From contig NC_016803.1 in the NCBI RefSeq assembly GCF_000189295.2, forward strand, positions 2,940,001-2,972,000: DNA of 32,000 bases, read 5' to 3'. A model generated the notes under the pieces. The model did no database searches and was not told where the DNA came from. It saw nothing but the letters and a program-made list of their open reading frames with translations. The translations under genes were made by a program, and so were the position numbers. Positions 17,767 to 30,406 of the stretch are shown piece by piece. This DNA is from Pseudodesulfovibrio mercurii. GTDB lineage: Bacteria > Desulfobacterota > Desulfovibrionia > Desulfovibrionales > Desulfovibrionaceae. Numbering within the stretch: position 1 is the first letter of the stretch; each line of letters starts with the position of its first letter.

Positions 17767-17799
17767 AAGGCCCCGCGCTCATGCGCGGGGCCTTTTTTT
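17767..17799 (+). terminator. rho-independent terminator ending the apr-qmo cluster (A-tract upstream, so possibly bidirectional)
   Basis: AAGGCCCCGCGC-TCAT-GCGCGGGGCCTT 12-bp stem followed by T7. It is preceded by AAAAACA. Confidence 0.9.
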
Positions 17800-17821
17800 G
17801 CGCCGTCGGTCCGGGGGTGCC

Positions 17822-17942
17822 GGCTTGCGATAGCGGGCCATCTGCGAATTTCCCGAGGGGCGATTTGATCCTCACGTACTTGGGGTACGCTGCGGTCAAA
17901 TCGCCCCTCGGAAAATCCACATCTGACCCACTCTCCCAAGCC
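17822..17942 (+). repeat. type I structured intergenic repeat, copy A (nested hairpins)
   Basis: Shares conserved flanks and loops with 24836-24954. Closing helix GGCTTG/CAAGCC. 16-bp perfect stem 17853-17868 with 17896-17911. Apical stem CGTAC/GTACG (17875-17889). Confidence 0.8.
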
Positions 17943-17952
17943 TCGGTGTGTC

Positions 17953-17993
17953 GAGAGCCGCTGTTTGGGGGCTGCGCCCCCAAAGGCGCTCCA
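17953..17993 (+). repeat. type II hairpin module (GAGAGCCGC...stem-CTGCG-stem...CGCTCCA)
   Basis: GAGAGCCGCTGTTTGGGGGCTGCGCCCCCAAAGGCGCTCCA. Same architecture as 24973-25011 and, in inverse orientation, 31047-31084 and 31105-31138. Confidence 0.75.
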
Positions 17994-18026
17994 AGGGGGG
18001 CGATAGTATTTGTAGGGAAAGGGCTG

Positions 18027-18047
18027 CCTGGGTGCTGCGCACCCAGG
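18027..18047 (+). repeat. type II-like hairpin, second tandem unit
   Basis: CCTGGGTG-CTGCG-CACCCAGG. It is followed by GGGGGCGATGG, just as the first unit is followed by GGGGGGCGATAG. Confidence 0.55.
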
Positions 18048-18102
18048 GGGCGATGGGGAGGATGGTAGAGGGAGGAGACCGGGGGAATCCCGGCGACCAG
18101 AA

Positions 18103-18636
18103 CTATAGGCCGGACGTGAGGGTTGTTTTTTGGATCGCGTCATAGGCGGTAAAGCAGCCCCAGGCGAAGAGGCCGTATGAGGTGATCATGAAAGCCATCC
18201 CTATGAGCTGAAGAAGACATCCCGCCGCTTTACGGAATGTCGATTTTTTGGTGAGGCATTCTTCGACGCTGTTCGAATAGTTCCAGCGATACTTGAGATC
18301 GAACGCGTAGCAAATCTGGCTCAAATAGCTGAACACCCACGTGACGGACGCAAACAGCGCCCCGGCGACGAAGAATTGGAGTGCCGGCAATAATTCGTTA
18401 TTCCGCAGCTGGAAGTTCGAGGCTAGGAAGCCGAGCAGGGCGACGGCGGCACCGCCGTTCAGCAGCGTCGCACCTCGGATTGCACCCGAGGCAAAACCGA
18501 TAATCGATTGGATTAAAATTTGAAAATGTCCGAGGGCATGTTCGACATGATAGTAAATTATTTCCGAAGTTGTCGGTTCACGGTCTCGCATAAGTCGTCC
18601 TGCCTGGAGGTTTTGGATGTAATGCGGGTATTTCAT
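18103..18636 (-). CDS. orphan hypothetical membrane protein (about 3 hydrophobic helices) in a low-GC island
   Basis: ORF track, 177 aa. Hydrophobic stretches: GATLLNGGAAVALLGFLASNF, LLPALQFFVAGALFASVTWVFSYL, CLLQLIGMAFMITSYGLFAWGCF. Hand-counted lines give 43-50% GC against 68% in the adjacent ydfG line. There is no SD at ATG 18636. An alternative ATG at 18591 has an AGGA-type SD. Confidence 0.6.
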   Translation of the reverse strand: MKYPHYIQNLQAGRLMRDREPTTSEIIYYHVEHALGHFQILIQSIIGFASGAIRGATLLNGGAAVALLGFLASNFQLRNNELLPALQFFVAGALFASVTWVFSYLSQICYAFDLKYRWNYSNSVEECLTKKSTFRKAAGCLLQLIGMAFMITSYGLFAWGCFTAYDAIQKTTLTSGL

Positions 18637-18687
18637 GAAAGCAATATATAATATAAATATAAATAAAGAAAGATAAATATTTTAAAA
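18637..18687 (-). promoter_or_regulatory. extremely AT-rich block directly upstream of the orphan gene (likely promoter; possibly a leaderless or short-leader mRNA)
   Basis: 5 G/C in 51 nt. The minus strand reads ...TTTATTTATATTTATATTATATATTGCTTTC-ATG, with TATATT ending 6 nt before the ATG. Confidence 0.35.
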
Positions 18688-18709
18688 CGCCAGTCGCCGA
18701 CATCGGCGT
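18687..18709 (-). terminator. possible terminator between ydfG and the orphan gene
   Basis: The minus strand reads ACGCCGATGTCGGCGACTGGCGT followed by TTTTAAAATATTT. It contains an inner CGCCGA/TCGGCG palindrome. Confidence 0.4.
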
Positions 18710-24752: not shown

Positions 24753-24778
24753 CCGCCATAGTTATAGAGATTGGAGGT

Positions 24779-24810
24779 CCCCCGGAAGCCGTGCGCTTCC
24801 GGGGGGCTTT
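24779..24810 (+). terminator. terminator-like hairpin after livF
   Basis: CCCCCGGAAGC/GCTTCCGGGGG 11-bp stem followed by GCTTTG, a short U-tract. Confidence 0.55.
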
Positions 24811-24835
24811 GCGTATGTCCGGCTTTGCGGGAGGC

Positions 24836-24954
24836 GGCTTCCGATAGCGGGCCATCTGCACATTTTTTCCGGCCGCGACAATCCTCACGTAGACGGCTAC
24901 GCTGCGGTTGTCGCGGCCGGAAGAAAATGCACAGCTGACCCACTCTCGAAAGCC
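24836..24954 (+). repeat. type I structured intergenic repeat, copy B
   Basis: Conserved CGATAGCGGGCCATCTGC, ATCCTCACGTA, TACGCTGCGG and CTGACCCACTCTC as in copy A. It has a different perfect 15-bp stem (24867-24881 with 24908-24922) and apical stem CGTAG/CTACG. Confidence 0.8.
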
Positions 24955-24972: not shown

Positions 24973-25011
24973 GAGAGCCGCTGTCGGGTGCTGCGCACCC
25001 GAATCGCTCCA
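24973..25011 (+). repeat. type II hairpin module
   Basis: GAGAGCCGCTGTCGGGTGCTGCGCACCCGAATCGCTCCA. Confidence 0.75.
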
Positions 25012-25077
25012 TGAAGAGTGAAGACCAAAGGCCGTTGACCCGGTGGAGGGTTGAAGGCCGTTTTGTTTGGGCTCGCA

Positions 25078-25150
25078 CCCCGCGAAGCGGCGAAAAAAGT
25101 TTTGGAGAGTCCAGAGAACCTTTTTCAAAAGGTTCTCTGGCGGGGTCCGG
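25078..25150 (+). repeat. type III module (CCCCGCGAAGCG..AAAAAGTTT.GGAG plus a long palindrome)
   Basis: CCCCGCGAAGCGGCGAAAAAAGTTTTGGAGAGT, then a 14-bp hairpin CCAGAGAACCTTTT/AAAAGGTTCTCTGG (25111-25140), then GGGGTCCGGGG. Related in inverse orientation to 26499-26608. Confidence 0.7.
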
Positions 25151-25244
25151 GGCAGCGCTCCGGCCGCCGGAGGCATGCCTTGAAAAAGAGGGCGGCCCGG
25201 TCCACGGGAGTGGGCCGGGCCGGGCGAAATGGGGGTTTTGTTTG

Positions 25245-25715
25245 TTAGGCGTAGTCGCCGCGGTTGAACTTGAACTGTTCGGTGGCGGCGAGGGTTTCCA
25301 GTTCATCGACGATGGACTTGAGTCCGGGGTGGGTGGTCTCGAGGTCGGGTTGTCCGGCCTTGAGGCTGGCCACGTCGTCGGCGATCTCGTCGAGGGTGCC
25401 GTAGGCGGACTTGAGTCCGGCCTCGGGGTCGGCGAGGGTGGCGGCGTAGTCGTCCCACTTGTCGAGGATGGATTCCACCTGGCCCGCGATTTCCGCGCCG
25501 TCGTCGGACACGGCCTGCACTTCGGCGACCGACCCGGCGGCGAACAGGGGATTCACGATTAAGGGCGGCGCAACGGACGGCGAGACAGCCGTTTCTCCCC
25601 GCGCCACTTCCTGATTGAGAAGATCCCCGAAGGCCGCGTCGGACTGCGTCGCCTTGTTGCGGCGCTGTGATTGTTCCGGCTGGACGCCCTCGATCTGATC
25701 AGGACGGATCTCCAT
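25245..25715 (-). CDS. hypothetical acidic 156-aa protein
   Basis: ORF track. ATG 25715 with an AGGAG SD, GC3-biased codons, Asp/Glu/Ala-rich. No family recognised. Confidence 0.65.
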   Translation of the reverse strand: MEIRPDQIEGVQPEQSQRRNKATQSDAAFGDLLNQEVARGETAVSPSVAPPLIVNPLFAAGSVAEVQAVSDDGAEIAGQVESILDKWDDYAATLADPEAGLKSAYGTLDEIADDVASLKAGQPDLETTHPGLKSIVDELETLAATEQFKFNRGDYA

Positions 25716-26481: not shown

Positions 26482-26498
26482 ATTTGCGCCTGCGGCGC

Positions 26499-26608
26499 CC
26501 GGGGGAAGGGGAGAGAGGGAACCCTTTGCAAAGGGCTTCCCTCTCTCCCCCTTCCCCCGGACCCCCAACCCCTCTCACCCTCCGAAACTTTTTGGGCGCT
26601 TCGCGGGG
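26499..26608 (-). repeat. type III module, inverse orientation, with a 23/24-bp palindrome
   Basis: CCGGGGGAAGGGGAGAGAGGGAA ... TTCCCTCTCTCCCCCTTCCCCCGG (26499-26560) surrounds an inner CCCTTTGCAAAGGG. The rc of 26582-26608 is CCCCGCGAAGCGCCCAAAAAGTTTCGG, matching 25078-25104. Confidence 0.7.
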
Positions 26609-26686
26609 AGGGACGCGGGGAGACGCTTCAGGGACGGCAAGGCACGGCCATCCGCGTCCGCGAGGCGATTTTTCGAGGAGAGAGTG

Positions 26687-29995: not shown

Positions 29996-30085
29996 GTAGG
30001 CGGCTTTCGCTGGTTGTGAGCGAATGTCTGCCGCCCAGACGCGCTCAAACCTGCGCTTCCGCCGCCGATTACCGCTCTTCGGGTG

Positions 30086-30202
30086 TGGGGAGTGGGCCGG
30101 GGTGGATGGCCGGGGTACGAAGAAGCGGGTTGCGGGAAGGTTGGCCGCGCATCCACATCGGGCTGGGGAGTGGGTCGGGGTGGATGGCCGGGTACGAAGA
30201 AG
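30086..30202 (+). repeat. two ~40-nt direct repeats with 78-nt period
   Basis: TGGGGAGTGGGCCGGGGTGGATGGCCGGGGTACGAAGAAG (30086-30125) against TGGGGAGTGGGTCGGGGTGGATGGCCGGGTACGAAGAAG (30164-30202): one substitution and one 1-nt indel. The 14-mer GGGAGTGGGCCGGG recurs at 25206-25219. Confidence 0.8.
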
Positions 30203-30406
30203 GGAGGGGAGCAGAGAAATGGTCGCGGTTGCGTGGTCGTACTTCGTTTCCTCTCACGGACCTTCGTGTCCCTTTCTCCCCTGCGACCAATGGAGCGATT
30301 CGGGCAGGGCAGGGGTGGTTCGGCAGGGACTTTTTGCGCTGGCCTTCTCTTGTCGGCGACAGTACACTTCCGCTTGCTATTTCATCCGAAAACAGGGAAT
30401 TGCCGC

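Follow-up and report, generated by a model that had tools for sequence, protein, structure and literature searches.

The window, a stretch of 32,000 nucleotides from Pseudodesulfovibrio mercurii ND132, contains two plus-strand operons, the qmo cluster and the liv operon, each of which ends in a convergent intergenic region whose downstream neighbour lies on the minus strand, and each of these regions holds a copy of the same element of about 120 nt. At the qmo locus, the bidirectional terminator of the qmo-associated gene, scored on both strands, occupies 17767..17801 (hairpin 17767-17794), and copy A (17822..17942) begins 21-28 nt later; at the liv locus, a terminator-like hairpin lies 3' of livF on the plus strand at 24778..24812 (hairpin about 24778-24806), and copy B (24836..24954) begins ~28 nt later. 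These positions, and the placement ~21-28 nt after a plus-strand terminator hairpin between convergent genes, are as given in a preliminary description of the two copies. The 18-mer CGATAGCGGGCCATCTGC occurs exactly twice in the window (vs 0.05 times expected by chance), and a search of the window with a covariance model returned copies A and B as the only matches, the model of the minus strand giving 129/126 bits.

Copy A lies on the plus strand, which is that of its upstream gene, and its main part (module 1) is a 121-nt imperfect hairpin that folds better on the minus strand, built from an outer stem (GGCTTG/CAAGCC), a core (GCGGGCCATCTGC opposite CATCTGACCCAC), a perfectly paired 16-bp inner stem that varies within the family (CCGAGGGGCGATTTGA/TCAAATCGCCCCTCGG) and an apical stem (CGTAC-N-GTACG). 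Module 1 of copy B, also on the plus strand, is a hairpin of 119 nt with the outer parts and core of copy A and a different, equally perfect inner stem of 15 bp (TTCCGGCCGCGACAA/TTGTCGCGGCCGGAA). The preliminary description was correct that these inner stems of 16 and 15 bp are perfectly self-complementary and different (their sequences are in fact unrelated), and that the copies also differ in the apical stem (CGTAC/GTACG vs CGTAG/CTACG) and the closing helix (GGCTTG/CAAGCC vs GGCTTC/GAAAGCC). The conserved segments, which it had taken to be unpaired, are mostly not loops: CGATAGCGGGCCATCTGC pairs against CTGACCCACTCTC(G) as an imperfect basal helix, so that the entire 120 nt form one long imperfect rod.

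The likeness between the copies extends 3' into a second, smaller hairpin repeat (module 2; GAGAGCCGCTGT-hairpin-CGCTCCA), found at 17953..17993 (+) behind copy A (GAGAGCCGCTGTTTGGGGGCTGCGCCCCCAAAGGCGCTCCA) and at 24973..25011 (+) behind copy B (GAGAGCCGCTGTCGGGTGCTGCGCACCCGAATCGCTCCA). The copy B composite runs on, to ~25176, through a terminator-like hairpin with a T-run at 25030..25069 (+) that has its wobble pairs on the plus strand (GGCCGTTGACCC..GGGTTGAAGGCC GTTTTGTTTG) and a member of a second repeat family at 25077..25176 (+; CCCCGCGAAGCGGCG-AAAAAGTTT-GGAG.. followed by a palindrome and GGCCGCCGGAGGCAT). We rejected module 1 as an intrinsic terminator, since neither window copy has a T-run on either side of it and a separate terminator comes after module 2. 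A third hairpin similar to module 2 lies just right of copy A, at 18020-18055.

The ORF at 25245-25715 (-) encodes a protein with 100% identity to DND132_2656 of P. mercurii; it has no Pfam match in a direct scan, and its homologs in several Pseudodesulfovibrio records are named FliX (flagellar assembly regulator, PF10768). The ORF at 18103-18636 (-) encodes 177 aa, is low in GC, has no Pfam match and is preceded by an AT-rich upstream region (18640-18700); because the ~830-nt stretch containing it has no counterpart at the syntenic locus of two sister species, it looks like a recent acquisition. If this ORF is transcribed, its 3' UTR would cross copy A on the well-folding strand and reach the bidirectional terminator. 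Elsewhere in the window, at 30085-30205 (+), two tandem units of ~45 nt (GGGGAGTGGGYCGGGGTGGATGGCCGGGTACGAAGAAG) look like the element's minus strand lacking its centre, which is likewise deleted in the copy of P. thermohalotolerans, and the alignment is too weak for us to claim them as relic copies.

When species-representative genomes were searched for exact matches to the 18-mer, 86 places came up, 41 of which are full or variant copies: the two in the window and 39 in the genomes of two sister species, D. caledoniensis lm2024 and P. karagichevae 9FUS, to which the window DNA is ~90% identical. The element had been described as one of two copies, and at least 39 more thus exist in these sister genomes; the remaining 18-mer matches are chance occurrences inside genes or belong to distant relatives. 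Among the copies we distinguished 31 distinct canonical units of 118-123 nt, as well as variants that have ~54 nt inserted in the apical loop, carry extra sequence near the 3' end or have undergone deletions. About six types of inner hairpin circulate in the family, each common to several copies, and the difference between copies A and B, presented earlier as compensatory change, is a difference between two of these types and not the stepwise covariation of a two-copy RNA.

The copies are parts of mosaics with a regular order, in which the hairpin (module 1) is followed by the small second hairpin (module 2), often by a terminator of its own, and by another palindromic repeat; in most copies module 2 gives way to an A/G-rich spacer, which leads to a terminator hairpin with its T-run and then to the further palindrome. 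Module 2 (GAGAGCCGCTGT - GGGTGCTGCGCACCC - CGCTCCA) acts as an independent small REP-like unit, and at one P. indicus locus (L212) two tandem module-2 units stand in the absence of module 1. The second multicopy family, present in the window at 25077-25176 (+) and 26487-26612 (-), consists of CCCCGCGAAGCGGCG-AAAAAGTTT-GGAAGG, a long G/A-rich palindrome (GGGGGAAGGGGAGAGAGGGAACCCTTTGCAAAGGG...) and then GGCCGCCGGAGGC; it comes after the hairpin composite at many D. caledoniensis and P. karagichevae loci and also occurs alone in the window, between usp and aminotransferase genes. The ~54-nt sequence TCGCTGCTGTCGTCATCTCTAAGACCGAGCAAGCTCGGCCTAAGAGCTGAGGCA is inserted at one identical point of the apical loop in four copies (L017, L018, L031 and L069) with CGCTGC on both sides, and resembles yet another very small mobile repeat, with 6 bp duplicated.

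To place the copies relative to genes, we called genes with a codon-usage caller trained on the Pfam-supported genes of the window. The upstream gene is co-oriented with the element in 36 of 39 copies, or at ~26 of 28 loci after orthologous pairs are collapsed, and in tandem gene arrangements 12 copies are sense and 2 antisense. In 24 of the co-oriented copies no more than 25 nt separate GGCTTC from the stop codon, which often abuts it (TAG-GGC-GGCTTC), and about ten others, including both window copies, sit 65-91 nt from the stop codon behind a terminator. The genes concerned are core genes, such as qmo, liv and nusG-rplK. At the left junction, a run of 2-10 G ending in C separates the stop codon from GGCTTC in the 41 copies, the commonest abutting stop codon being TAG, and at two metagenome loci (L176 and L203) the ORF terminates at a TAG within the element's own GATAGCGGG.

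Comparison of the qmo and liv loci among related species revealed turnover. At the qmo locus, the D. caledoniensis copy and copy A differ by three double compensatory changes; that of P. karagichevae is decaying, a chimera of arms in which four positions are mismatched and 5 nt of the 18-mer are deleted; in P. thermohalotolerans nothing is left of the inner hairpin; P. cashew carries a divergent family member with the core altered on both arms (GCGGCGCATCCAC / GCGGCTGCACCAC); and in P. profundus and P. piezophilus, whose flanks are not alignable, the element is absent after the same terminator. At the liv-fliX locus, D. caledoniensis and P. karagichevae have a different type of inner hairpin within identical outer parts, as would be expected if recombination or conversion had replaced it; in Desulfovibrio sp. 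Huiquan2017 a deletion between GGGGGCTTTC repeats has removed the 5' half; and P. indicus lacks module 1 and has two tandem module-2 units. Because the element is dispensable at these loci, is swapped between copies and decays, it is not a dedicated or locus-specific regulator of qmo or liv. For nine of 14 D. caledoniensis copies the orthologous P. karagichevae locus is also occupied, and many copies are therefore old and stable; the other five have no partner among the P. karagichevae loci compared.

Base pairing has been kept through these sequence changes, as was originally proposed. For the 31 distinct copies, RNAalifold predicted 45 pairs, 15 of which have changed on both sides, and 97% of the paired cells remained paired, vs 86.6% when columns were shuffled and 36-43% when partners were slid; covariation scored 0.259, vs 0.081 in shuffles. 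These values are to be read with the caveat that the copies are related by subfamily and that palindromes can covary for mechanical reasons: because each inner-hairpin type is common to several copies, the covarying cells are not independent events. Within a single inner type, the states CCC/GGA, TCC/GGA, TCC/GAA, TTC/GAA and CCC/GAA were found, and the imperfect ones are all C.A on the plus strand. Of the claim that selection acts on structure, the maintenance of pairing thus stands, and an alternative that had not been considered, the correction of one palindrome arm by the other, has to be set beside it.

The strand that folds is the one opposite to the gene. The minus strand gives the better fold in all 31 copies, with a mean of -86.7 kcal/mol vs -66.0 kcal/mol on the plus strand (copy A, -89.6 vs -65.3; copy B, -85.6 vs -67.9), and it contains 5-10 G.U pairs per copy vs 0-2 on the plus strand. 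Over the alignment, 14 column pairs and 167 cells show C.A on the plus strand, equivalent to G.U on the minus strand, as against 3 column pairs and 16 cells with G.U on the plus strand; the other plus-strand mismatches (T.C, C.C and C.T) are purine-purine on the minus strand. The terminators 3' of module 2 served as an internal control: there, 24 G.U pairs lie on the plus strand vs 8 on the minus strand, and the plus strand is the more stable. Since these neighbouring terminators show the opposite bias, the strand asymmetry of the element does not reflect a genome-wide mutation bias. The wobble-pair signature thus belongs to the gene-antisense strand, the gene-sense strand having C.A where the antisense has G.U, and the orientation rule conflicts with the folding strand in that the sense strand is the one that folds poorly. 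The initial reading of the element as a possible structured RNA is supported with respect to compensatory change and is not supported by the poorer fold of the plus-strand RNA and the wobble signature of the minus strand. The other possibility offered with it, a DNA hairpin that a protein recognises, may still hold. No sigma-70-like promoter for a minus-strand transcript was seen beside copy A or B.

Relatives containing the same 18-mer were found in a Desulfobacterales MAG, a Deltaproteobacteria MAG and Binatia, the hairpin of the Desulfobacterales MAG lying within a unit of ~235 nt that has perfect 13-bp terminal inverted repeats (CCTGAATCCGTGA). A metagenome scan with the pattern GCGGGCCATCTG...CAKCTGRMCC returned at least 120 places, and about 70 of the matches listed form long hairpins, for most of which the same strand again gives the better fold. 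Altogether, 78 distinct hairpins among the matches listed have in common an inverted 13-nt core, GCGGGCCATCTGC / GCAKCTGRCCCRC, although both database scans required the exact 5' core, so that the conservation of that arm is partly a matter of ascertainment. Beyond the core, the members of this superfamily share a loosely conserved apical motif (..CTC..ACGTA-N-TACG..), their outer and inner stems are family-specific and mutually complementary, and their mismatches are fixed at the same positions across phyla. The superfamily extends over Desulfobacterota, Binatia, Acidobacteria-like soil contigs and one gut contig; a single match on a viral contig was rejected as coding-like rather than hairpin-like.

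Because the scans constrained the 5' core, we recounted the strand asymmetry on the 12-bp outer stems of the superfamily, which lie outside the search pattern. In the 26 distinct outer stems among the matches listed, there are 237 Watson-Crick pairs, 24 C.A on the plus strand and 5 G.U on the plus strand. Superfamily members lie ~2-45 nt from stop codons, in either orientation (roughly 9 vs 6 loci among the matches listed). In the nusG-rplK spacer of an uncultured lineage (L094, L154, L156 and L162), a relative is located 2 nt after the nusG stop codon.

No known family accounts for the element. The window had 0 matches at the gathering thresholds of Rfam 15, in agreement with the earlier failure to recognise a named RNA family; at a permissive E-value level only sub-threshold long-hairpin noise appeared (MIR1858, 34 bits vs a threshold of 137), and 18 loci of relatives yielded tRNAs only. 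Among the papers searched, nothing relevant was found on Desulfovibrio MITEs or repeats or on the core sequence, and resemblances to hammerhead, boxA, dif and oriT, judged by inspection only, found no support. The preliminary description had proposed looking in the genome for a Y1 (RAYT-like) transposase, and none was found in the flanks of the copies: all-against-all clustering of 3363 ORFs from 119 loci (~1.5 Mb of flanks) revealed no recurrent transposase, RAYT or recombinase, the top clusters being spurious ORFs across repeats or common families (ABC ATPases, kinases). In a tblastn search of the flanking loci, for which RAYT-like and IS608 TnpA-like sequences served as queries, the only matches were L141 and L192, two loci that we had rejected as hairpin copies because the pattern there matches by chance within a RAYT/IS200-like gene, in which GCGGGCCATCTGTTTCAGGGGCGCTTCAAG encodes ..GHLFQGRFK...

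The closest likeness is to small palindromic repeats. REP sequences are in general multicopy, extragenic and located mostly just downstream of genes (PMC3733652). Like REPINs and BIMEs, the present element is multicopy, extragenic and mostly just 3' of genes, between unidirectional or convergent genes; like REPINs, it pairs an inverted short motif into a hairpin of ~100 nt with a variable yet paired middle, and like REPs and BIMEs it is clustered with other small repeats as mosaics. However, its 13-nt core is not itself palindromic and carries no GTAG or CGTC tag, its conserved motif lies inside the stem with at least 12 bp of family-specific stem outside, and no RAYT was found near any copy. 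The inverted doublet, the long hairpin and the extragenic position 3' of genes are therefore those of a REPIN, whereas the tagged palindromic unit of 20-40 nt and the RAYT are missing. The CGTC REP families, with their stems of 8-9 bp, differ in size and architecture, and on these grounds we rejected membership in the GTAG and CGTC REPs.

ERIC and Correia elements are lineage-restricted, imperfect palindromes of ~120-150 nt in transcribed spacers, with variants that have internal insertions at fixed points, and their orientation matters for the RNA hairpin in the mRNA. Our element resembles them as a long imperfect palindrome with fixed-point internal insertions whose orientation matters for an mRNA-borne hairpin, and it differs in that its sequence shows no relation to theirs, neither a TA duplication nor terminal-repeat tips were detected, the core is cross-phylum and the orientation is much more strongly fixed (~26/28 loci). 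With MITEs it shares small size, non-coding sequence, inverted-repeat arms, subfamilies, nested insertions and a patchy distribution among congeners, and one relative lies within the unit with perfect 13-bp terminal inverted repeats. However, the inverted repeats are imperfect and extend over the whole element, no cognate insertion sequence was found, and the tips vary between families as the subterminal core is conserved, which is the reverse of the usual transposon ends. No direct repeat that could be a target-site duplication was present at the left and right junctions of the 41 copies, and a clean empty site was absent from the loci compared, including the qmo and fliX-liv loci of other species. 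A MITE, which had been named at the outset as an alternative to a structured RNA, thus largely describes the element in spirit (multicopy, mosaic, with nested insertions, decay and syntenic absence), except that neither a target-site duplication nor a transposase was found.

The element is multicopy and modular, keeps a fixed orientation, with a stop codon or a first terminator before it and a terminator after it, and exchanges its inner hairpin. On balance, we therefore regard it as probably a copy of a non-coding, non-autonomous palindromic repeat of the REP/REPIN/ERIC/Correia kind, belonging to an undescribed family and forming one module of the mosaic clusters at gene ends in Pseudodesulfovibrio. 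The inverted 13-nt core, with its fixed mismatches in a long hairpin, may be the structure recognised by a trans-acting factor that is responsible for spreading or maintaining the repeat; the hairpin would be read single-stranded on the bottom (antisense) strand, DNA being the most plausible form. Pairing could be kept by compensatory change through G.T or G.U intermediates on the bottom strand, probably aided by arm-to-arm correction. Copies would survive at gene ends in the orientation in which the weakly folding strand enters the mRNA, where they would form a 3'-UTR hairpin before the terminator, presumably with at most a modest effect on mRNA ends. Transposition is not demonstrated, because neither a target-site duplication nor a clean empty site was found, and the near-invariance of the core across phyla, together with the strictness of the orientation rule, may just as well reflect a host function. 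A crude test on local GC skew showed no replication bias in orientation, which counts against a bottom strand folding as DNA.

A broader and more tentative proposal, which we consider rather unlikely, is that the core GCGGGCCATCTGC / GCAKCTGRCCCRC marks a cross-phylum class of strand-specific hairpins whose folded bottom strand is read by dedicated machinery, being either a new mobile or recombination site or an antisense-strand RNA, homing to the first bases after stop codons.

The fixed orientation invites a reading in terms of the transcript: the element could be a cis-acting 3'-UTR RNA of the sense strand, a rod whose fixed C.A, U.C and C.C mismatches form a platform for protein binding or processing and which stabilises the upstream mRNA or yields a 3'-UTR-derived small RNA ending at the composite terminator. 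Its position directly after the stop, its orientation at ~26 of 28 loci, the plus-strand terminator with plus-strand wobble pairs 3' of module 2 in most copies, mismatch positions conserved across copies and families, covariation, and retention at orthologous loci in three species would all suit such an RNA. However, the sense strand folds worse by ~20 kcal/mol and has its transition-type mismatches as C.A throughout rather than as G.U, and about ten copies, both window copies among them, lie behind a terminator, which implies poor transcription from upstream. Considering also that other superfamily families show both orientations at gene ends (roughly 9 vs 6 loci among the matches listed) and that congeners have the element deleted, truncated or absent at the same loci, we judge a sense-strand RNA to be unlikely.

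Because the template strand is the better-folding one and whole inner hairpins are exchanged between copies, we also considered a folded single-stranded DNA site on the bottom strand, serving as substrate for a recombinase or an HUH/Y1-type enzyme in the manner of integron attC sites or REP/RAYT substrates, in which the extrahelical or mismatched bases of the core would specify the strand and the variable inner part need only pair. The logic would be that of attC, with a conserved base of the stem, a variable self-complementary centre, a better-folding bottom strand and a fixed orientation at the 3' end of an ORF, sometimes overlapping its stop codon. However, the R'/R'' consensus of attC (RYYYAAC ... 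GTTRRRY) is absent, there are no cassette arrays and no IntI, the neighbours being housekeeping genes such as qmo, liv and nusG-rplK, and genes for an integrase, a RAYT or an IS200-type enzyme are absent from the vicinity of the ~120 loci. In addition, orientation is unbiased with respect to local GC skew (22:19), in a crude test that is uninformative on replication-linked orientation and whose 8-kb windows are confounded by gene strand. Such a role seems quite improbable.

Finally, complementarity might be kept by mechanism alone (template switching, gene conversion from arm to arm, or homogenisation of copies by recombination), which would make the covariation uninformative on function. Inner hairpins are indeed swapped as blocks, the arms of one ortholog form a chimera in which four pairs are mismatched, and in one soil family locus-specific flanks that lengthen the hairpin by 15-25 bp stay complementary among orthologs. 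Ordinary bidirectional terminators, too, sit inside much longer perfect palindromes (L002, L022, L030 and L045, upstream of the element, and L210; e.g., CCAGCTCCTGAGAGACAAAAAAAAGCCCCGCC...GGCGGGGCTTTTTTTTGTCTCTCAGGAGCTGG), which suggests a general process extending or symmetrising inverted repeats in these genomes. However, a sufficient explanation of this kind is very improbable, since blind symmetrisation leaves unexplained the strand bias of the mismatches (14 vs 3 column pairs; 24 vs 5 in the outer stems), the opposite bias of the adjacent terminators and the fixation of mismatches at the same positions across phyla.

If the element is only a selfish repeat, as the preferred reading of a palindromic repeat family allows, it would still explain a large share of the intergenic DNA of Pseudodesulfovibrio, provide annotators with a motif to mask, and serve as a warning against taking covariation between two copies for a regulatory RNA. 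If the core is a recognition site, then a 13-nt motif has been kept across phyla in hairpins that are otherwise free to change, and an unknown enzyme or process would be at work at gene ends, where the elements lie only a few bases from stop codons, the template strand is shaped for folding and dozens of natural variants are available. And should the cross-phylum class be true, the way in which the orientation rule clashes with the strand that folds would be a mark of their mode of action.
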